Virus record (IMG/VR): IMGVR_UViG_2675903654_000008
Span: 1 to 11,553 of that record
Strand: one strand, 5' to 3'
DNA length: 11,553 nt
Source: a virus
Lineage: Duplodnaviria; Heunggongvirae; Uroviricota; Caudoviricetes
Below the pieces are notes generated by a model that saw only the letters and a list, made by a program, of their open reading frames with translations, searched no databases and was not told the origin of the DNA. Position 1 is the first letter of the stretch, and each line of letters begins with the position of its first letter. This document shows positions 1-6,841 of the stretch, piece after piece. The position numbers were made by a program, and so were the translations under genes.

Positions 1-109
1 TACTCCTCCGGCAGAAGCAGAAAAAGCTTATTATGCTTCCATCGGAAAAGATGATCTGGCAGCCTGAGTTCACAGATAAAACACTCTCCAGGAAACCCGG
101 GGCGGTTCA
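1..109 (+). mobile_element. IS3-family insertion sequence, right (3') end, IS629/IS1203-like; window starts inside the element
   Basis: Terminus ...GGAAACCCGGGGCGGTTCA ends at 109. Bases 2-67 encode an in-frame transposase OrfB C-terminus (TPPAEAEKAYYASIGKDDLAA, stop at 65-67). The reverse complement of 1-109 recurs at 11430-11538 with one mismatch. Matches my recollection of the IS629 3' end. Confidence 0.85.
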
Positions 110-161
110 ATCGGGTTGAAAGGGCGAACCGATGCCGCCCTGCAATAGCGAACTGTTGCAT
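110..161 (-). pseudogene. 5' fragment of a leftward gene (17 codons, MQQFAIAGRHRFALSTR) truncated by the IS end; N-terminus weakly cIII-like
   Basis: ATG at 161-159 (minus) preceded by SD AAGGAGC. The frame runs straight into the IS terminus at 109. Lambda CIII begins MQYAIAG, and the position (distal pL operon) fits. Confidence 0.35.
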
Positions 162-344
162 AGGATGCTCCTTCTGTTTGATTGCATAACGAAAACGCCT
201 CGAGTGAAGCGTTATTGGTATGCATATAAAAAGGCCCTCACACTGGAGGGCAAAGAAGATTTCCAATAATCAGAACAAGTCGGCTCCTGTTTAGTTACGA
301 GCGACATTGCTCACATAGCAGACTCGCAAATCTGATATAGGCGC

Positions 345-506
345 TTATTCGCATCGCATGACAACATCAAATTTTTCGAGATTACTTTGCCGCAACAATC
401 CCTCTTCTACGCGGTCAGCTTTTCTATAATTATCAAATTCGAAATGTTTAATTACTTCTTTCGTTTCTCGCTCTATAACTTCAACGATGTATTTCTTATT
501 CATCAT
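345..506 (-). CDS. hypothetical small protein (53 aa, MMNKKYIVEVIERETKEV...)
   Basis: ORF below the track size cutoff. Its ATG overlaps the stop of the upstream 96-aa ORF (ATGATGA arrangement), suggesting translational coupling. Confidence 0.35.
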   Translation of the reverse strand: MMNKKYIVEVIERETKEVIKHFEFDNYRKADRVEEGLLRQSNLEKFDVVMRCE

Positions 507-793
507 TCTTCCCCAAGAGCTTTGCTGATTGCTGACTGTGCTTTCGATACTTCATCAGGATAATGGTCATTCCAGTTTTGCTTGTATGCCTTGTTTAGCA
601 TCGCTTGCAGGGCATTTAAAAGGTCAGGTGCTGCCGCTATTAGATTGGCATCTTCAATGCATTGAACTTCCTCACAGATTGCAATATACGAACGCCAGCC
701 TGCGCCATTTTCAAGTGAGTCTGCCTGGATGATTTTAATCTCATCGCCATCCATCATTATTTCCCACTTACCTTCGGTACCTTTAAATTCCAT
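503..793 (-). CDS. hypothetical early-left phage protein (96 aa); AAAPDLLNAL segment reminiscent of Ead/Ea22-like phage proteins
   Basis: Track ORF, same orientation as the pL operon. The family resemblance is from memory only. Confidence 0.55.
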   Translation of the reverse strand: MEFKGTEGKWEIMMDGDEIKIIQADSLENGAGWRSYIAICEEVQCIEDANLIAAAPDLLNALQAMLNKAYKQNWNDHYPDEVSKAQSAISKALGEE

Positions 794-845
794 GTTAGCC
801 TCTGTTGTTTATGCCAAAAATAAAGGCCGACTATGCGGCCTGAAA

Positions 846-1295
846 TTACTTAACCAATGATGCTGCATATTCGATAAGGTAAAGTTTTGGGGCCAGCCAA
901 ATTTTTAACCAAGTCATATTGGTTACTACACCAATAATAAAAATCCCCCACAGAGTCAAAACTCCAACCAATGGCATGATAAGAAGGTTAATATCTCCTT
1001 TGCTATCCCAAACCATTGTCGGCCTGTATTTGGGATTTCCCCTCTCCCATGAGTATCCTTCATCACCGATTTTACCTGTCTCAACTCTTTGGCACTGCTT
1101 CTTCATAAACCAGAAAACCAGTGGGATTGTTAGAATGGCTATTAATGTTTTAATCAGACTGTCAACCATATTCCATAGCAGCAACTGATGAACAACATCA
1201 GGAATCTGTGCCTGGCTAAATGAAACAGCCGCGTCTATTCCATTACTGGCTTTTTGCAGTAGTTCTACGAGAATCTTGTTTGCTTGTTCTTCCAT
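846..1295 (-). CDS. hypothetical small membrane protein (149 aa, two hydrophobic helices)
   Basis: Track ORF. SD AAGGTG upstream of the ATG at 1295. Hydrophobic stretches LIKTLIAILTIPLVFWF and LLIMPLVGVLTLWGIFIIGVV. Confidence 0.6.
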   Translation of the reverse strand: MEEQANKILVELLQKASNGIDAAVSFSQAQIPDVVHQLLLWNMVDSLIKTLIAILTIPLVFWFMKKQCQRVETGKIGDEGYSWERGNPKYRPTMVWDSKGDINLLIMPLVGVLTLWGIFIIGVVTNMTWLKIWLAPKLYLIEYAASLVK

Positions 1296-1438
1296 ATATC
1301 ACCTTAAATAGTGGATTGCGGTAGTAAAGATTGTGCCTGTCTTTTAACCACATCAGGCTCGGTGGTTCTCGTGTACCCCTACAGCGAGAAATCGGATAAA
1401 CTCTATTCACCCCTACAGAGAGCAAAAGAGAAACGCCG

Positions 1439-2020
1439 ATGAACAACTCATGGTGGCAGGAACTAATGCATTTTTTCCTGCAAGGAATGACACTTAAACA
1501 GTTGATTCATATGCTAATCATCCTGATCATATTGATTATTGTTATGCCGGTAAGCGTAAAAGAATGGATAAACCTGCATAATCCAGAAATCCTTCCTCAT
1601 TATTGGATGTATTACATCCTGTTGTTCTGCGTTAGCTATGTGCTTAACGGTGTTGTTAATTCCGCTTATCACGCTGTGACTGAAAGAATTGAGGTATCCG
1701 CTGCTCAGAAGCGCAAATCTAAAGAAGAAAAATATGTGCAAGATTTGTTTGATTCGTTAACTCTTGGAGAAAGAGCGTATTTGGCATTCGCTGTAGCCGC
1801 GAATAACCAGCTAAAGACAGAAAAGGGAAGCCATGAAGCAATCTCATTGCTCGAAAAAGGGCTTCTTATTCGGATACCTTCTGCTACTGGATATCCTGAA
1901 ATCGACCGTTTTGTTATCCCTGAACGCTATAGAAATGAGTGCTACATTAGGTTTGCTGGGAAGAAAGACAGCCTTATGGATGAACTTATCGCTCAGGATA
2001 AGCATGGCAAAAACAAGTAA
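1439..2020 (+). CDS. sieB: superinfection exclusion protein B-like (SieB-like) membrane protein
   Basis: 193-aa ORF with an N-terminal transmembrane segment (LIHMLIILIILIIVMPV) and a second hydrophobic helix. Sits next to the N gene on the opposite strand, as sieB does in lambda/P22-type phages. Family assignment from memory. Confidence 0.55.
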   Translation: MNNSWWQELMHFFLQGMTLKQLIHMLIILIILIIVMPVSVKEWINLHNPEILPHYWMYYILLFCVSYVLNGVVNSAYHAVTERIEVSAAQKRKSKEEKYVQDLFDSLTLGERAYLAFAVAANNQLKTEKGSHEAISLLEKGLLIRIPSATGYPEIDRFVIPERYRNECYIRFAGKKDSLMDELIAQDKHGKNK

Positions 2021-2036
2021 TTAGCAAATGAATTTA

Positions 2037-2309
2037 TCATCTCGCCGTCAGTTGTTTTGATTTCCGGTAGCCTGCCGAGTAAATGGCTACGTTTGGCAGG
2101 CAAATACTTCCACTGCATTCTTCTGCCTTCTTGCAGCGAAGGCTTCCGAGTGATGCTGCTTTATCTGCTCTGACGCAACCAGAGAGCTTTAGCGCAATTT
2201 TTCGCGCCAGTCGCTGCTCTTGCATTGCCTGTTCACGTTGAGCCTGTCTGCGTGCTCTGCGGCGATTTCTGGCGTTATCGTCAGCCAGATATGTAATGAC
2301 TACTGTCAT
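2037..2309 (-). CDS. N: N-like transcription antitermination protein with an arginine-rich motif
   Basis: 90-aa ORF, first gene downstream of pL/nutL. Arginine-rich N-terminus (NARNRRRARRQAQREQA). SD GGAGGT before the ATG at 2309. Confidence 0.7.
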   Translation of the reverse strand: MTVVITYLADDNARNRRRARRQAQREQAMQEQRLARKIALKLSGCVRADKAASLGSLRCKKAEECSGSICLPNVAIYSAGYRKSKQLTAR

Positions 2310-2416
2310 GTTGACCTCCGATGATTGACTTTGGCGGTGACGCGCCGGGTGCTTATCTTCCGGTTGCCGTCGTGCAGCTGCACTTCACGTCACCCCAAAG
2401 CCAACTACTCTTTGGT

Positions 2417-2457
2417 TCCCGCATTTCGGCGGGACAATCCCATCAATGTTAAAGAGC
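2417..2457 (-). promoter_or_regulatory. nutL: boxA-like GCTCTTTAA plus boxB hairpin UCCCGC-CGAAAU-GCGGGA
   Basis: On the minus strand, boxA (2457-2449) is followed by a boxB stem-loop (2434-2417), between pL and N. The boxB sequence is identical to the one at nutR. Confidence 0.65.
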
Positions 2458-2503
2458 CTGCCAAGCTGTTCCGTTTGGCTACCAGCGTCCTGCTGATGGC
2501 TTA

Positions 2504-2584
2504 AATTTAAGATCTCTTTAATTAATGGTCAAGAGTATTTTTGAAGAAAACTTAAATTTTCTTTCGTAACTTAAGTTTAGCTTT
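2504..2584 (-). promoter_or_regulatory. pL promoter candidate with OL operators
   Basis: Minus-strand -35 TTGACC (2532-2527) and -10 TAAATT (2509-2504), 17-bp spacer. Overlapping TTAAG...CTTTAA-type operator-like sequences (e.g. ATTTAAGATCTCTTTAAT at 2505-2522). Confidence 0.45.
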
Positions 2585-2600
2585 GATTTTTAAAGGAAAT

Positions 2601-2622
2601 AAAAAAAGGGGCGAATGCCCCC
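2601..2622 (-). terminator. intrinsic terminator immediately downstream of the repressor gene
   Basis: Minus strand reads TAA-GGGGGCATTCGCCCC-TTTTTTT: a GC stem followed by a T-run directly after the cI stop. Confidence 0.6.
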
Positions 2623-3273
2623 TTATGGAAGGTTTGCTAGTTTTGCATCGACAACTACGCCGATGATTTTGCAGTTTCCGTTGATCTCGATCATCGGATA
2701 TTGTGGGTTAAGTGGTTTTAGAAACTTCCTGCCTGCATCAATAACTAACTTCTTGAAAGTTGCCTCGTTTTCTCCTTCGAGCTTTGCAACTACAAGTTTC
2801 CCGTTACGCGGCTCTACTTCAGGATCGACGAGTATTATCATTCCTTCAGGGATACTGAGACCGGCTGGAGCCGTCATTGAGTCTCCCTTCACGTCCAACC
2901 AAAACGAATCTTCTGAACAGTCTACGGTTGTATCGTACCAGTTATCTATTGCACGCTTATGATATGGTTCTACAGCTTCCATCCAGCATCCTGCGCTCAC
3001 CCAGCTAATCAGAGGGAATGACCCTCTTGGATCATGCCTACTGTGATAGGCAATGTTTGAAAGACTTTCCTCTCCTTTCATCAGATAGTCAGGGGAACAC
3101 TTCAACGCATTAGCCAGGGCGAGAAGATTCTCTCCATTTGGCTCTGTCTCAGAGCGTTCCCACTGAGATATGGCAACATTAGACACGCCGACCATCTTTC
3201 CAAGTGCGGCCTGCCTGATCTTGAGTTCTTTTCTCCGAGCGCGAATGCGCTCTCCCATCAATTGAGTTTTCAT
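2623..3273 (-). CDS. cI: cI/c2-type prophage repressor (N-terminal HTH, C-terminal LexA-like S24 autopeptidase); closely P22 c2-like
   Basis: 216 aa. HTH segment QAALGKMVGVSNVAISQWE. C-terminal GDSM serine and FKKL lysine motifs. C-terminal half similar to lambda CI and the whole protein to P22 C2 as I recall them. Confidence 0.9.
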   Translation of the reverse strand: MKTQLMGERIRARRKELKIRQAALGKMVGVSNVAISQWERSETEPNGENLLALANALKCSPDYLMKGEESLSNIAYHSRHDPRGSFPLISWVSAGCWMEAVEPYHKRAIDNWYDTTVDCSEDSFWLDVKGDSMTAPAGLSIPEGMIILVDPEVEPRNGKLVVAKLEGENEATFKKLVIDAGRKFLKPLNPQYPMIEINGNCKIIGVVVDAKLANLP

Positions 3274-3339
3274 AGTTAAGACATCTTAAATAAACTTGAC
3301 TTAAGATTCCTTTAGTGGATAATTTAAGTGTTCTTTAAT
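3274..3339. promoter_or_regulatory. OR operator cluster (three 18-bp sites) with pR
   Basis: AGTTAAGACATCTTAAAT (3274-3291), ACTTAAGATTCCTTTAGT (3299-3316), ATTTAAGTGTTCTTTAAT (3322-3339) fit the P22-type A.TTAAG....CTT.A.T pattern. pR -35 TTGACT (3296-3301) and -10 GATAAT (3318-3323). Confidence 0.7.
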
Positions 3340-3353
3340 TTCGGGGCGAGTCT

Positions 3354-3539
3354 ATGTACAAGAAAGATGTTATCGACCACTTCGGAACCCAGCGTGCTGT
3401 AGCTAAAGCGTTAGGCATTAGCGACGCAGCAGTCTCTCAGTGGAAGGAAGTCATCCCAGAGAAAGACGCCTATCGACTGGAAGTCGTTACAGCTGGCGCC
3501 CTGAAGTATCAAGAAAGCGCTTACCGCAAAGCGGCATAA
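3354..3539 (+). CDS. cro: Cro repressor (P22-type)
   Basis: 61-aa ORF divergent from cI across the operator region. HTH QRAVAKALGISDAAVSQW. Confidence 0.85.
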   Translation: MYKKDVIDHFGTQRAVAKALGISDAAVSQWKEVIPEKDAYRLEVVTAGALKYQESAYRKAA

Positions 3540-3545
3540 GCAAAT

Positions 3546-3590
3546 TGCTCTTTAACAGTCATGGTCCTCATTCCCGCCGAAATGCGGGAA
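3546..3590 (+). promoter_or_regulatory. nutR: boxA TGCTCTTTAA plus boxB hairpin UUCCCGC-CGAAAU-GCGGGAA
   Basis: boxA at 3546-3555, 15-nt spacer, boxB at 3571-3590, just downstream of the cro stop. Confidence 0.7.
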
Positions 3591-3596
3591 TACAAC

Positions 3597-3630
3597 GCGC
3601 ATAAGTTGATGCGCATAACTTCTTATTTGT
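3597..3630 (+). terminator. candidate tR1 region (GCGCAT-loop-ATGCGC hairpin followed by T-rich tract)
   Basis: Inverted repeat 3597-3602 / 3609-3614 between nutR and cII. Lambda tR1 is Rho-dependent, so the hairpin alone is weak evidence. Confidence 0.3.
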
Positions 3631-3647
3631 TAAGGAAATACTTACAT

Positions 3648-3941
3648 ATGGTTCGTGCAAACAAACGCAACGAGGCTCTAAGAATCGAGAGTGCGTTGCT
3701 TAACAAAATCGCAATGCTTGGAACTGAGAAGACAGCGGAAGCTGTGGGAGTTGATAAGTCGCAGATCAGCAGGTGGAAGAGGGACTGGATTCCAAAGTTC
3801 TCAATGCTGCTTGCTGTTCTTGAATGGGGCGTCGTTGACGACGACATGGCTCGATTGGCACGACAAGTTGCTTCGATTCTCACCAATAAAAAACGCCCGG
3901 CGGCAACCGAGCGTTCTGAACAAATCCAGATGGAATTCTGA
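3648..3941 (+). CDS. cII: CII transcriptional activator
   Basis: Translation from the ATG at 3648 (MVRANKRNEALRIESALLNKIAMLGTEKTAEAVGVDKSQISRWKRDW...EQIQMEF, 97 aa) is near-identical to lambda CII as I recall it. The track's upstream start at 3561 would read through nutR. Confidence 0.9.
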   Translation: MVRANKRNEALRIESALLNKIAMLGTEKTAEAVGVDKSQISRWKRDWIPKFSMLLAVLEWGVVDDDMARLARQVASILTNKKRPAATERSEQIQMEF

Positions 3942-3962
3942 GGGAATTACTGGATCAATCCA
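3886..3962 (-). ncRNA. oop: oop antisense RNA candidate, overlapping the 3' end of cII
   Basis: The cII/O junction closely matches lambda. On the minus strand there is a GC-rich hairpin then a T-run (complement of AATAAAAAACGCCCGGCGGC at 3886-3905). Ends are approximate, inferred by analogy to lambda. Confidence 0.45.
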
Positions 3963-3973
3963 CAGGAGTCATT

Positions 3974-4912
3974 ATGACAAATACAGCAAAAATACTCAAC
4001 TTCGGCAGAGGTAACTTTGCCGAACAGGAGCGTAATGTGGCAGATCTCGATGATGGTTACGCCAGACTATCAAATATGCTGATTGAGGCTTATTCAGGCG
4101 CAGATCTGACCAAGCGACAGTTTAAAGTGCTGCTTGCCATTCTGCGTAAAACCTATGGGTGGAATAAACCAATGGACAGAATCACCGATTCTCAACTTAG
4201 CGAGATTACAAAGTTACCTGTCAAACGGTGCAATGAAGCCAAGTTAGAACTCGTCAGAATGAATATTATCAAGCAGCAAGGCGGCATGTTTGGACCAAAT
4301 AAAAACATCCCAGAATGGTGCATCCCTCAAAACGAGGGAGGTTCCCCTAAAATGAGGGACATCCCTCAAAACGAGGGAAAATCCCCTAAAACGAGGGATA
4401 AAACATCCCTCAAATTAGGGGATTGCTATCCCTCAAAACAGGGGGACACAAAAGACACTATTACAAAAGAAAAAAGAAAAGATTATTCGTCAGAGAATTC
4501 TGGCGAATCCTCTGACCAGCCAGAAAACGATCTTTCTGTGGTTAAACCGGATGCTGCAATTCAGAGCGGCAGCAAGTGGGGAACAGCAGAAGACCTGACC
4601 GCCGCAGAGTGGATGTTTGACATGGTGAAGACCATCGCACCATCAGCCAGAAAACCGAATTTTGCAGGGTGGGCTAACGATATCCGCCTGATGCGTGAAC
4701 GTGACGGACGTAACCACCGCGACATGTGCGTGCTGTTCCGCTGGGCATGCCAGGACAACTTCTGGTCCGGTAACGTGCTAAGTCCGGCCAAACTCCGCGA
4801 CAAGTGGGCCCAACTCGAAATCAACCGTAACAAGCAACAGGCTGGCGTGACAGCTGGAAAACCAAAACTCGACCTGACAAACACTGACTGGATTTACGGG
4901 GTGGATTTATGA
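3974..4912 (+). CDS. O: replication initiator protein O (lambda-type)
   Basis: 312-aa ORF. N-terminus MTNTAKILNFGRGNFAEQERNVADLDDGYARLSNML matches lambda O. Contains the origin iterons in its linker region. Confidence 0.9.
   Translation: MTNTAKILNFGRGNFAEQERNVADLDDGYARLSNMLIEAYSGADLTKRQFKVLLAILRKTYGWNKPMDRITDSQLSEITKLPVKRCNEAKLELVRMNIIKQQGGMFGPNKNIPEWCIPQNEGGSPKMRDIPQNEGKSPKTRDKTSLKLGDCYPSKQGDTKDTITKEKRKDYSSENSGESSDQPENDLSVVKPDAAIQSGSKWGTAEDLTAAEWMFDMVKTIAPSARKPNFAGWANDIRLMRERDGRNHRDMCVLFRWACQDNFWSGNVLSPAKLRDKWAQLEINRNKQQAGVTAGKPKLDLTNTDWIYGVDL
4322..4446 (+). repeat. ori iterons: six ~18-bp O-binding repeats, followed by an AT-rich unwinding region (~4447-4490)
   Basis: ATCCCTCAAAACGAGGGA (4322-4339), TTCCCCTAAAATGAGGGA (4342-4359), ATCCCTCAAAACGAGGGA (4361-4378), ATCCCCTAAAACGAGGGA (4381-4398), ATCCCTCAAATTAGGGGA (4405-4422), ATCCCTCAAAACAGGGGGA (4428-4446). 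Confidence 0.85.
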
Positions 4913-5610
4913 AAAACATCGCCGCACAGATGGTTAACTTTGACCGTGAGCAGATGCGTCGGATCGCCAACAACATGCCGGAACAGTACGACGAAAAGCC
5001 GCAGGTACAACAGGTAGCGCAGATCATCAACGGTGTGTTCAGCCAGTTACTGGCAACTTTCCCGGCGAGTCTGGCTAACCGGGACCAGAACGAACTGAAT
5101 GAAATCCGCCGCCAGTGGGTTCTGGCTTTCCGGGAAAACGGGATCACCTCGATGGAACAGGTTAACGCAGGAATGCGCGTAGCCCGTCGGCAGAATCGAC
5201 CATTTCTTCCATCACCCGGGCAGTTTGTTGCATGGTGCCGGGAAGAAGCATCCGTTATCGCCGGACTGCCAAACGTCAGCGAGCTGGTTGATATGGTTTA
5301 CGAGTATTGCCGGAAGCGTGGCCTGTATCCGGATGCAGAGTCTTATCCGTGGAAATCAAACGCGCACTACTGGCTGGTTACCAACCTGTACCAGAACATG
5401 CGGGCCAATGCGCTGACTGACGCGGAATTACGGCGCAAGGCTGCCGATGAACTGACCTGTATGACAGCACGAATTAACCGTGGTGAGACGATACCTGAAC
5501 CAGTAAAACAACTTCCTGTCATGGGCGGCAGACCTCTAAATCGAGCACAGGCTCTGGCGAAGATCGCAGAAATTAAAGCTAAGTTCGGACTGAAAGGAGC
5601 AAGTGTATGA
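4909..5610 (+). CDS. P: replication protein P (DnaB helicase loader), lambda-type
   Basis: 233-aa ORF overlapping the O stop. Sequence matches lambda P as I recall it. Confidence 0.9.
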   Translation: MKNIAAQMVNFDREQMRRIANNMPEQYDEKPQVQQVAQIINGVFSQLLATFPASLANRDQNELNEIRRQWVLAFRENGITSMEQVNAGMRVARRQNRPFLPSPGQFVAWCREEASVIAGLPNVSELVDMVYEYCRKRGLYPDAESYPWKSNAHYWLVTNLYQNMRANALTDAELRRKAADELTCMTARINRGETIPEPVKQLPVMGGRPLNRAQALAKIAEIKAKFGLKGASV

Positions 5611-5897
5611 CGGGCAAAGAGGCAATTATTCATTACCTCGGGACGCATAAGAACTTCTGTGCACAGGACGTTTCCGCGGTAACAGGCGCAACCGTAACCA
5701 GCATAAATCAGGCTGCGGCTAAAATGGCGCGGGCAGGAATCCTGGTCATTGATGGTAAGGTCTGGCGAACGGTGTATTACCGGTTTGCTACCAGGGAAGA
5801 ACGGGAAGGAAAGGTGAGCACGAACCTGATTTTTAAGGAGTGTCGCCAGAGTGTAGCGATGAAACGGGTATTGGCGGTATATGGAGTTAAAAGATGA
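5607..5897 (+). CDS. ren: Ren protein
   Basis: 96-aa ORF overlapping the P stop (ATGA), lambda ren-like sequence and position. Confidence 0.85.
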   Translation: MTGKEAIIHYLGTHKNFCAQDVSAVTGATVTSINQAAAKMARAGILVIDGKVWRTVYYRFATREEREGKVSTNLIFKECRQSVAMKRVLAVYGVKR

Positions 5898-5922
5898 CCA
5901 TCTACATCACTGAGCTAATAAC

Positions 5923-5954
5923 AGGCCTGCTGGTAATCGCAGGCCTTTTTATTT
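5923..5954 (+). terminator. tR2-like intrinsic terminator
   Basis: AGGCCTGC-TGGTAATC-GCAGGCCT stem-loop followed by TTTTTATTT, right after ren; same context as lambda tR2. Confidence 0.7.
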
Positions 5955-5967
5955 GGGGGAGAGGGAA

Positions 5968-6246
5968 GTGAACGATAGCTACCGACAGTTTGAAAACTGG
6001 TGGTCAAAAGACAAAAGCCAGTTCACGGGAGACGATGAATTAAAAGAGTTTGCCTGGGTGATATGGCAGGCATCGCGCTCTGCTATTGAACTGGATATCG
6101 ACTGGCCCGAATCGAATGACGACCTTTGGAAAGATGGTGAAGAAGGTGCTTATGCGATGGGTTATGAGGATGGGCGTGACAAAACGGTAATTGCAGTAAT
6201 GAAAGCCATCAGGGCCGCAGGAATCAAAGAAAAGAATTTCGATTAA
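5968..6246 (+). CDS. hypothetical nin-region protein (92 aa from GTG 5968; 97 aa if TTG 5953 is used)
   Basis: Track ORF. SD GGAGAGGGAA immediately upstream of the GTG. Acidic, Trp-rich protein with no family I can recognise. Confidence 0.55.
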   Translation: MNDSYRQFENWWSKDKSQFTGDDELKEFAWVIWQASRSAIELDIDWPESNDDLWKDGEEGAYAMGYEDGRDKTVIAVMKAIRAAGIKEKNFD

Positions 6247-6378
6247 GCAAATATCACTTCAATAAATCGCTTTTAAGGCATCACAATCGCTCTGTGGTGA
6301 GGTAAGCACGTGCAAGGCATGCCGATAAGCAGCGAGAATGAAAAATGCGTCAGAATGCGTTTGAGGAGGTTTTAAGAA

Positions 6379-6594
6379 ATGAGTACGATAGCTGAGCTTG
6401 TCAGGGCTAATTTTCGTGAAGAGTTGGTGCGTTGGTATCGGTATCGTTCATCGTCCAGTTTGCCGCTTGATGAGTTGTATGAGCATTCACCTGCCGCACG
6501 ACGCTATCCGCGTGACCGTGTTCTTCGACGGTTGTTCAAACTCAACAATGAGTTTCAGCGCAACAGAATTATCCGGAGTCTGGATTTTAAGTGA
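6379..6594 (+). CDS. hypothetical protein (71 aa, basic, Arg-rich)
   Basis: Track ORF with a strong SD (GAGGAGG) 8 nt upstream of the ATG. Confidence 0.5.
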   Translation: MSTIAELVRANFREELVRWYRYRSSSSLPLDELYEHSPAARRYPRDRVLRRLFKLNNEFQRNRIIRSLDFK

Positions 6595-6604
6595 AGGAGT
6601 GAGC

Positions 6605-6841
6605 ATGAGCGACCTATCATTAACCCAGCCAAAGCTAAAAGAATGTCCGTTTTGCGGCGGTAATGCTCGTCTGTGGGTTGAGGCCGGAATAAATATTGAT
6701 GTGTGGGGCTATGCAGAATGTGACCTCTGTGAAGCCAGGGGGGCATGGGCACCATCAGTTGCTGCGGCGGCTGAAAAATGGAACCGGAGAGCAGGAGATG
6801 AAGCAAACCTTTCTGCTTCGCAACGAAGCAATCAGAAATAA
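6605..6841 (+). CDS. Lar-family restriction-alleviation-like small zinc-binding protein
   Basis: Internal ATG at 6605 with SD AGGAGTG. Product MSDLSLTQPKLKECPFCGG...ECDLCEARGAWAPSVAAAAEKWNRR has the CPFCG / CxxC / (A/K)WNRR pattern I associate with Lar-like proteins. The 3' end overlaps the ninB start. Confidence 0.55.
   Translation: MSDLSLTQPKLKECPFCGGNARLWVEAGINIDVWGYAECDLCEARGAWAPSVAAAAEKWNRRAGDEANLSASQRSNQK

Follow-up and report, generated by a model that had tools for sequence, protein, structure and literature searches.

The question raised by this locus is whether a sieB-like gene and the small membrane protein gene beside it together form a dedicated superinfection-exclusion or abortive-infection (Abi) module, as a preliminary description of the DNA had suggested. 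The window analysed here is the whole stretch of 11,553 nucleotides (positions 1 to 11,553 of the IMG/VR record IMGVR_UViG_2675903654_000008, Caudoviricetes). We find that the region consists of a known gene, sieB, and of an unrelated gene encoding a two-helix membrane protein, and that a dedicated exclusion module is not supported. Our explanation as a whole, which we hold to be likely, is that the region is laid out like the early-left region of lambdoid phages in general, with pL, nutL and N followed by sieB on the other strand and then by a variable slot for accessory genes, a terminator and additional pL-operon genes. The features of the region are as follows.

846–1295, minus strand: 149-aa ORF encoding a two-helix membrane protein, family phrog_3054 (ORF list, PHROG profile, hydropathy, mosaic joints)
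824–841, minus strand: terminator-like hairpin followed by a T-run (scan; alignment with lambda and HK140)
1318–1443, minus strand: putative equivalent of the P22 sas antisense RNA (P22A-sas sequence given in PMC13397905, Table 2, mapped by alignment)
1373–1403, plus strand: putative sieB promoter/RNA start region (transferred from the P22 annotation)
1439–2020, plus strand: sieB, P22-type, 193 aa, with a hydrophobic N-terminal region (profile matches, pairwise comparison with P22 SieB)
1511–2020, plus strand: putative esc, in-frame internal product from SieB Met25 (P22 esc annotation, codon 25)
2037–2309, minus strand: N antiterminator, 90 aa, first gene of the pL operon (Pfam N_peptide, phrog_271, HK140 gp46)
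2440–2461, minus strand: nutL boxA-like site, GCTCTTTAAC (HK140 'putative Nut boxA site', placed via blastn offset)
2504–2532, minus strand: pL-like promoter between cI and N (TTGACC, 17-nt spacer, TAAATT; scan)

The N gene product matches Pfam N_peptide (PF25694, 1e-15) as well as phrog_271, and the gene is 98% identical to HK140 gp46 at the DNA level, while the pL-like promoter occupies the position of P22 pL/OL between c2 and gene 24. As initially described, sieB converges on N, with a gap of 16 bp (2021–2036) up to the N stop codon (2037–2039). On its other side, sieB is separated by 143 bp, counted from its ATG, from the 149-aa ORF, which had been termed divergently arranged. This wording is correct relative to sieB and incorrect relative to N and pL, with which the ORF shares its strand; the odd-strand gene of the region is sieB. 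No match to Rfam families was obtained across the whole window.

The designation of the 193-aa ORF as sieB-like was borne out by all comparisons made. The protein matches Pfam SieB (PF14163, residues 24–164, E = 3.4e-24, 85.6 bits versus a cut-off of 26) and phrog_1301 (5e-123), is 85% identical to P22 SieB over 191 aa, with greater divergence in its C-terminal third, and carries the PGAP name 'super-infection exclusion protein B'. The Kyte–Doolittle mean rises up to 3.0 in windows centred on residues 21–38, a second hydrophobic stretch is discernible by direct reading of the sequence at about residues 55–75, and the protein thereby displays the arrangement of N-terminal hydrophobic membrane segment(s) followed by a soluble C-terminal domain. 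Its gene lies between N and the ral slot, opposite to the pL strand. Judged by homology, the 193-aa ORF is a P22-type SieB, a superinfection exclusion (abortive infection) protein.

The regulatory surroundings of P22 sieB likewise appear to be preserved. Met25 and its flanking nucleotides are identical between the window and P22, in which esc is annotated from codon 25, and the internal Esc start seems to be retained. The region annotated in P22virB-3 as 'promoter, sieB RNA start site' lies 38–68 nt 5' of the sieB ATG; its counterpart in the window (1373–1403) falls below the sigma-70 consensus threshold of our promoter scan. Identity to P22 amounts to 97% over the psieB/sas region, and the 133 nt 5' of the sieB ATG are 97–98% identical to P22, Oslo and sal5, as compared to merely 85–88% within the sieB coding sequence, a difference which fits constraint on both strands (psieB and sas). 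The sas equivalent spans the sieB start and leader, and a distance of 22 nt separates its 3' end from the ATG of the 149-aa ORF, which follows downstream on the same strand. Folding of the sas/leader RNA showed no extra stability relative to shuffled sequence (z = −0.2).

The expectation that pL transcription runs antisense through sieB is consistent with these data, and would correspond to the sieB/esc/sas arrangement of P22, which reportedly goes back to Ranade and Poteete in 1993. In P22, Esc protects the phage against its own SieB. By homology, sieB would be transcribed rightward in the lysogen from its own weak promoter, and membrane-anchored SieB would abort the lytic growth of superinfecting relatives, with Met25-initiated Esc neutralising SieB; leftward transcription over the sieB 5' end would yield the sas antisense RNA and move translation from SieB to Esc. 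Summaries of the P22 system are available (PMC10883804, PMC12197685, PMC7067206). The sieB part of the locus is already known, being one more instance, at the canonical location, of a system known for 30 years; position and orientation are those of P22 sieB, flanked by N (gene 24) and the ral slot. What differs from P22 is the left neighbour, which is the 149-aa ORF in the window and ral in P22. Lambda (sieB, lambdap48) shares the order N (minus), sieB (plus), orf28/ral (minus), but the convergent N and sieB ends are 0 bp apart in lambda as opposed to 16 bp in the window, and lambda SieB is of a distant sequence type, which is missed by tblastn with the window protein at 1e-5; the lambda-type phrog_6399 matches the window SieB at E = 0.0012 only.

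In line with the preliminary description, the neighbouring gene encodes a two-helix membrane protein. The ORF is a real gene. The exact 149-aa protein is present on at least 1000 contigs, an ungapped frame of 447 nt is kept in 77 of 80 related viral loci, and about 3,700 cluster representatives (50% identity; 3,699 at E ≤ 1e-3) match its profile. A spurious ORF was considered as well and rejected on the basis of this conservation across thousands of sequences. Kyte–Doolittle windows of 19 residues reach at least 1.6 around residues 48–56 and 109–121, and hydropathy delimits two hydrophobic helices at about 45–64 and 102–125. Exactly two hydrophobic segments were counted in 120 of 146 phrog_3054 representatives; among these 120, the loop is the side richer in K+R in 114, and it contains 6.0 K+R compared to 1.9 in the two outer flanks. 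According to the positive-inside rule, this crude hydropathy and charge count predicts a periplasmic location for the acidic N-terminal (∼45 aa) and the C-terminal (∼25 aa) segments and a cytoplasmic one for the basic, variable loop. The C-terminal segment of the 149-aa protein is itself fairly hydrophobic and could be membrane-embedded. An AF2 model built from a 27-sequence alignment places helices at residues 2–68, 106–125 and 128–148, at low confidence (pLDDT 66, pTM 0.42). Foldseek with this model gave no match in the PDB, and its best BFVD match (E = 0.12) was not significant; we draw no fold-based inference from a low-confidence model with a null search; a sequence-profile search of the PDB with the protein likewise returned 0 matches at E ≤ 10.

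Comparison with related phages places the 149-aa ORF in the pL-operon slot that is held by orf28/ral in lambda, P22 and HK140. Mosaic joints are located at 1284–1305, at the ORF start codon, and at about 835, just beyond its stop: HK140, which bears ral, matches the window solely at 801–834 and from 1284 onward, and Gally, which is without sieB, matches 801–1305 at 99.4%. The upstream limit of the exchanged segment lies about 10 nt 5' of the ATG and the downstream limit at the hairpin, and joints in these positions indicate that the 149-aa ORF is a cassette without a promoter of its own. The intergenic DNA upstream belongs to sieB and travels with it. Scanning of 1296–1438 for consensus sigma-70 promoters, a search which weak or non-consensus promoters escape, detected none facing the ORF, and psas or any other leftward promoter, sought by eye and by scan, yielded no convincing candidate. 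The hairpin lies 5 nt past the ORF stop codon, and its T-run and 3' flank match the sequence found directly downstream of ral in lambda and HK140 (the latter by the homology at 801–834); as these elements are common to ral-bearing phages, the terminator belongs to the slot and is not private to the ORF. The combination of own promoter and terminator within one cassette, by which a prophage 'moron' is recognised, was accordingly not found for the 149-aa ORF.

With orf28/ral of lambda and P22, the 149-aa ORF has in common the slot, strand, upstream leader, start position, RBS region and downstream T-rich flank, as well as the status of a dispensable pL-operon accessory gene. It differs from them in lacking any sequence similarity and in encoding a predicted two-pass membrane protein; Ral is a small soluble protein which acts on type IA restriction-modification enzymes (PMC12707154). 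P22 and HK140 share a conserved ATGGAAGAA ahead of ral, which is not the ral start: Ral starts with MTTTID, and the shared start belongs to a small lambda-orf28-like ORF. Both ral and an ORF of the 149-aa family coexist in ETEC H10407, in the order sieB, ral, ORF, and strain A41 has the ORF 8 nt downstream of an N-like gene.

The 149-aa protein matches phrog_3054 over its full length (2.8e-64, residues 1–149 against profile positions 1–137 of 137), and all 27 aligned relatives match the family. The family is characterized by an N-terminal motif, F..QIP.V..QLL.W, and a C-terminal one, WLKIW.APK.YL.EYAA.L, which flank the two variable TM helices and which are both present in the 149-aa ORF in alignments. 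Across 143 representatives the mean frequency of the top residue is 0.58 at the N-terminus and 0.75 at the C-terminus, as compared to 0.17–0.30 in TM1, loop and TM2; the termini of phrog_3054 are strongly conserved and the TM-loop-TM centre is hypervariable. We retrieved 181 phage records with the family, including N4-like, phi92-like, jumbo, Vibrio and Pseudomonas phages. Members are common in strictly virulent phages (N4-like, phi92-like, jumbo), and the family reaches across podoviruses, siphoviruses, myoviruses and jumbo phages and across Enterobacteria, Vibrio, Pseudomonas and Ralstonia as hosts. Nothing sets the window copy apart from the family, with which it shares the full-length match and the invariant terminal motifs. 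In some sources the family is named 'Sf6 gene 34 protein' or 'phage transmembrane protein'.

Searches for a functional label were negative in the databases covered. phrog_3054 is not represented in Pfam, and its structure has been neither solved nor predicted with confidence; the 149-aa ORF matches no Pfam or NCBIfam model, and PADLOC returned 0 matches at E ≤ 1. At E ≤ 1, the 27 relatives produced no more than scattered noise from membrane proteins in Pfam and, among named PHROGs, phrog_1486 ('membrane protein'), phrog_306 ('minor head protein Ace-like', E = 0.014) and phrog_8125 ('tail length tape measure protein', E = 0.22), with no match of any of the 27 to PHROGs annotated as exclusion or immunity. 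A conserved partner gene was not found in the virulent-phage contexts, and a literature search by accession, family name and Sf6 gene 34 retrieved nothing on function.

These data bear directly on the proposed module, according to which sieB and the 149-aa ORF would both be expressed in the lysogen from the divergent intergenic region between them and act as an exclusion/Abi unit, a reading which we regard as very unlikely. In its favour, the genes diverge from each other across 143 bp, both encode membrane proteins, a terminator-like hairpin follows the ORF, and the adjacency recurs in Salmonella P22-like phages, as the 149-aa form in Oslo and as a 121-aa allele in 103203_sal5 and in SPN9CC-type phages. 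However, among 5,426 complete E. coli genomes the ORF was found in 130 and sieB in 577, and the two were directly adjacent in none. sieB is the immediate upstream neighbour of the ORF in just 7 of 80 IMG/VR viral loci; a co-directional ral-like, Gally-31-like or N-like gene is located 8–59 nt upstream in 28, and every N-like gene detected in these loci is on the strand of the ORF. HK140 and P22 carry sieB with ral in place of the ORF, and Gally carries the ORF without sieB, so that each gene is found without the other, and neither the co-occurrence nor the fixed adjacency of a conserved two-gene module is seen. The intergenic region moves with sieB and not with the ORF, and the missing consensus promoter towards the ORF in the scan points in the same direction. 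Taken together, these results indicate that sieB and the 149-aa ORF, each exchanged independently as a cassette, lie side by side by chance. For the membrane ORF as a prophage-expressed exclusion/Abi factor we see no sign either: it sits in the orf28/ral slot as a cassette without upstream DNA, matches nothing in PADLOC, Pfam or NCBIfam, and belongs to a family that is frequent among virulent phages, in which a prophage state does not exist. This negative outcome is of use to annotators, who should not assign the 149-aa ORF an exclusion or Abi role by position.

The analysis above shows which genes are present and in what order, the mosaic joints, the independent assortment of the two genes, the breadth of the family and its conservation pattern, whereas expression timing, topology and function are inferred. 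We read the 149-aa ORF as encoding an early-lytic inner-membrane accessory protein. Leftward transcription of the pL operon would include the ORF, for which the sas region would act as 5' leader, and the product of a promoterless cassette read from this operon should appear upon induction or at an early stage of lytic growth and not in the repressed prophage; a leftward promoter active in the lysogen, psas or one within sieB, could nevertheless read into it. The protein is predicted to span the inner membrane twice. Guided by its location, we tentatively consider it a dispensable early accessory factor similar to its pL-operon neighbours Ral, Kil, CIII and Gam. Its termini, which are conserved, might act on an equally conserved component of the host envelope, with the variable TM hairpin serving as an anchor only. 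Its effect could be a modulated membrane process or defence, or an infected cell closed to further phage entry.

The last of these effects is close to a further explanation, by which the 149-aa protein is an exclusion protein of the T4 Imm or P22 SieA kind, made early and possibly also in the prophage, whose termini block DNA entry by later phages. Such a function would suit a small inner-membrane protein placed in the early region of temperate and virulent phages alike, with conserved segments predicted to be periplasmic and a dispensable gene on mosaic cassettes; one homologue moreover lies in an ant/tailspike neighbourhood, the place of sieA in P22. We nonetheless consider it unlikely, as known entry blockers target the ejection apparatus of one phage and are narrowly distributed, whereas near-invariant termini across phage types and hosts argue for a host rather than a phage target, and the exclusion/immunity PHROGs were without a match among the 27 members at E ≤ 1. 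T4 Imm, P22 SieA and HK97 gp15 resemble the 149-aa protein by analogy only (small, inner-membrane, dispensable, in accessory position); sequence or profile similarity is not detectable, and the distribution of phrog_3054 is far broader. During lytic growth, an exclusion role of the protein may still apply. Highly improbable, in our view, is a lysis-timing or pore-forming function as a holin, an antiholin-like protein or a Kil-type membrane-depolarising toxin. Two TM helices are also found in class II holins, the C-terminal segment, being conserved and hydrophobic, might promote oligomerisation, and host-killing genes such as kil do occur in pL operons; yet conservation of the 149-aa protein is lowest in the TM helices, on which holin function centres, its long acidic N-terminal segment, which is conserved, does not resemble holins, and no endolysin or spanin neighbour was present in at least 8 contexts inspected, which were always early or accessory regions. 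Foldseek gave nothing significant here as well, the sole lysis-type name being a spanin at E = 8.8.

The residual interest of the locus is the family of the 149-aa protein, with about 3,700 clusters at 50% identity, which is confined to phages and prophages, is shared between temperate and virulent phages infecting several host genera, and shows an unusual conservation pattern. Functional annotation of one member could be carried over to thousands of genes. A broader proposal, which we put forward as doubtful, is that phrog_3054 comprises early phage inner-membrane proteins whose invariant, predicted periplasmic termini engage one conserved host envelope component, as a generic host-directed entry-closing or anti-defence device. 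If true, this device would be common to temperate and virulent phages of Gamma- and Betaproteobacteria, with the window copy being one allele in the ral slot. As to placement, family members are also found inserted on the opposite strand, in a Vibrio phage tail module or beside a tailspike and an O-antigen acetylase; these placements, together with the hairpin after the ORF, look moron-like and would be compatible, for some lineages, with expression that is independent or comes from the prophage.

The window represents a lambdoid immunity and early region, the relevant features of which are as follows.

Features of the early-left region (ORFs marked with a dagger† are from the ORF listing)
345–506, minus strand: 53-aa ORF of the pL operon (phrog_6949, function not assigned in PHROG; no above-threshold Pfam match)
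503–793, minus strand: 96-aa ORF of the pL operon (phrog_1273, function not assigned in PHROG; no above-threshold Pfam match)
846–1295, minus strand: 149-aa ORF†
1439–2020, plus strand: 193-aa ORF (sieB)†
2037–2309, minus strand: 90-aa ORF (N; Pfam N_peptide at 1e-15)†
about 2440–2461: boxA-like nutL
2504–2532: pL-like promoter
2623–3273, minus strand: LexA-type repressor†
right of the repressor: cro-, cII- and O-like ORFs†

These coordinates bear out the ORF positions of the preliminary description and the convergence of sieB with N, as the 193-aa ORF ends (2020) 16 bp from the stop codon of the 90-aa ORF (2037–2039). On its other side, 143 bp separate its ATG from the start of the 149-aa ORF, which is directed away from it. 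The order is identical to that of lambda, N (minus), sieB (plus), orf28/ral (minus). The 96-aa and 53-aa ORFs overlap by 4 nt, and upstream of the pL-like promoter, at 2605–2624 on the minus strand, a strong terminator-like hairpin (8 pairs, then a T-run) overlaps with the stop codon of cI.

The 193-aa ORF had been described as sieB-like, and profile searches upheld this homology, with matches to Pfam SieB (PF14163; 3.4e-24, 85.6 bits, cut-off 26) and phrog_1301 (5e-123). Its product shares 99% identity with SieB of HK140 and 85%, over 191 residues, with that of P22, which is defined by experiment, and E. coli copies carry the PGAP label 'super-infection exclusion protein B'. Judged by homology, the 193-aa ORF encodes SieB. 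In the P22 annotations, Esc, the product of an internal in-frame start, begins with codon 25, and 38–68 nt before the ATG lie the promoter and RNA start of sieB; Met25 and this whole promoter/RNA-start region are kept in the window. The 133 nt upstream of the sieB ATG (1306–1438) are 97–98% identical to P22, Oslo and the Salmonella P22-like phage sal5, whereas the sieB coding sequence reaches only 85–88%. This higher conservation of the upstream DNA fits a constraint on both strands, imposed by the sieB promoter and leader (plus) and by the antisense RNA sas (minus). The 127-nt P22 sas recovered by small-RNA sequencing (PMC13397905, Table 2) maps to window positions 1318–1443 on the minus strand. 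The preliminary description was right that transcripts from pL would cross sieB in antisense, an arrangement known to underlie the sieB/esc/sas switch (PMC12197685, PMC7067206); the sieB arrangement, antisense pL transcription included, is already known. In relatives that superinfect, SieB aborts the lytic cycle midway (PMC10883804), and, by homology to P22, membrane-bound SieB from the prophage would act likewise here, the phage itself being shielded by Esc and sas. A weak PADLOC '2TM-TIR' match (E=0.0077) to the N-terminal membrane region of SieB (residues 4–102, 1439–1740) may reflect a two-TM anchor type shared among Abi effectors, or hydrophobic composition alone.

The 149-aa ORF lies downstream of N on the same strand and hence within the pL operon, in a variable accessory slot left of sieB that is occupied by orf28/ral in lambda. 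No consensus sigma-70 promoter directed at it was found in 1296–1438, and its placement most simply predicts that it depends on pL for expression and is repressed in the lysogen. Mosaic joints were located by pairwise blastn of the window against annotated phages. HK140, carrying ral in the slot, matched only at 801–834 and from 1284 rightward; Gally, which has the 149-aa ORF and a different gene replacing sieB, matched 801–1305 at 99.4%. These joints define a mobile unit that runs from about 10 nt upstream of the 149-aa ORF (its RBS) through the first arm of the hairpin behind it. Segment 1296–1438, between the 149-aa ORF and sieB, accompanies sieB regardless of the left-hand gene, and in phages with ral the start of a small lambda-orf28-like ORF coincides exactly with the 149-aa ORF start position. 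Since the T-run and 3' flank of the terminator-like hairpin (824–841) are common to DNA downstream of ral in lambda and HK140, sequence comparison assigns this hairpin to the slot and not to the cassette. Mosaicism is also seen inside the gene: a 121-aa allele in Salmonella phage 103203_sal5 shares only the ends (1185–1295, 5'; 846–911, 3'; 87–95% DNA identity), its TM1-loop-TM2 centre being replaced and 28 codons shorter.

About 22 nt separate the 3' end of the sas-equivalent RNA from the ATG of the 149-aa ORF, which lies downstream on the same strand (1296–1443 region, minus), and no intrinsic terminator is present in this interval. The RNA may thus also serve the slot gene, whether ral/orf28 or the 149-aa ORF, as its 5' leader, or be processed from such a leader. 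The fold of the sas/leader RNA is not unusually stable (z=-0.2), and a psas promoter, looked for in the window, was not located.

According to the preliminary description, sieB and the membrane ORF may form a prophage-expressed superinfection-exclusion or abortive-infection module. Among 5,426 complete E. coli genomes, the 149-aa ORF (at least 80% coverage) was present in 130 and window-type sieB in 577, and both occurred in one place in two records only, ETEC H10407 and its duplicate, with ral in between. At 80 IMG/VR loci whose ORF has 75% or more identity to the 149-aa ORF, the immediate upstream neighbour was sieB in 7 (142–144 nt, divergent), ral in 15 and a Gally-31-like gene in 5 (both 58–59 nt, co-directional), and an N-like gene in 8 (8–41 nt, co-directional). 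In strain A41, too, an N-like gene precedes the ORF, at a distance of 8 nt. Further loci had a more distant upstream N-like gene, and all N-like genes detected were on the strand of the 149-aa ORF. The adjacency to sieB recurs in Salmonella P22-like phages, because the slot order is fixed and each gene is replaced independently. The initial interpretation is thus partly supported: SieB and the antisense arrangement hold, whereas a module, given independent assortment, and prophage expression of the membrane ORF, given its position in the pL operon, are not supported, and the combined proposal is improbable.

The 149-aa ORF is a real gene. Hydropathy agrees with the two-helix membrane protein proposed initially (helices at about residues 45–64 and 102–125), and at least 1000 contigs carry the identical protein, under the label 'hypothetical protein' or 'phage transmembrane protein'; a close allele takes the name 'gene 34 protein' from phage Sf6. 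Its sole family match was phrog_3054 (2.8e-64), which has no annotated function; Pfam, NCBIfam and PADLOC searches yielded no match, PDB sequence, PDB fold and viral fold searches returned nothing, and the AF2 model is of low confidence (pLDDT 66). Using tblastn, relatives were detected in 181 phage records, including lambdoid and P22-like phages, virulent N4-like Salmonella and Vibrio phages, phi92-like Justusliebigvirus, Pseudomonas and Rheinheimera phages, and the Ralstonia jumbo phage RsoM2USA (three copies). In these non-lambdoid genomes the gene lies among small early or middle genes, and no conserved partner gene was seen in the contexts inspected. A profile search over 1.84 billion representatives gave 3,699 matches at E<=1e-3 and 1,774 at 1e-10; among the matches listed, all were small single-domain proteins, mostly of 115–185 aa. 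Within this large and uncharacterised phage family the 149-aa protein is unexceptional, and the remaining interest, low to modest, lies only in the breadth and odd conservation pattern of the family.

In 143 representatives with a median identity of 38%, the frequency of the top residue averaged 0.58 for the N-terminal 44 residues, 0.30 for TM1, 0.21 for the loop, 0.17 for TM2 and 0.75 for the C-terminal 24 residues; the invariant motifs are F..QIP.V..QLL.W and WLKIW.APK.YL.EYAA.L. The loop averages 6.0 K+R compared to 1.9 for the two outer flanks, and is the richer in 114 of 120 two-TM representatives. By the positive-inside rule this predicts an N-out/C-out topology with the conserved termini toward the periplasm; the fairly hydrophobic nature of the C-terminal segment makes this assignment provisional.

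That the termini are nearly invariant in phages of unrelated virion types points to a host rather than a phage-specific partner. The slot and its neighbours Ral, Kil, CIII and Gam serve host-directed early functions. We tentatively propose that the 149-aa protein could be a dispensable, early-lytic inner-membrane accessory factor whose conserved termini would act on a conserved host envelope component, the variable TM hairpin serving as anchor only. A T4-Imm/SieA-like entry blocker appears unlikely. A pore or lysis-timing protein is much less likely still, since conservation is lowest in the TM helices and no lysis gene is adjacent in the contexts inspected.

Two family members occupy other settings. 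In Vibrio phage 1220 g2 (3001–3405), an opposite-strand member sits inside a tail-sheath and neck gene cluster, a moron-like placement. In another relative (L097, 943–1368), the end of a KilA-N (antirepressor-like) gene overlaps with a 52%-identical member, which is followed by a P22-type tailspike gene and an acyltransferase; lysogenic-conversion and immI genes are known from this neighbourhood.
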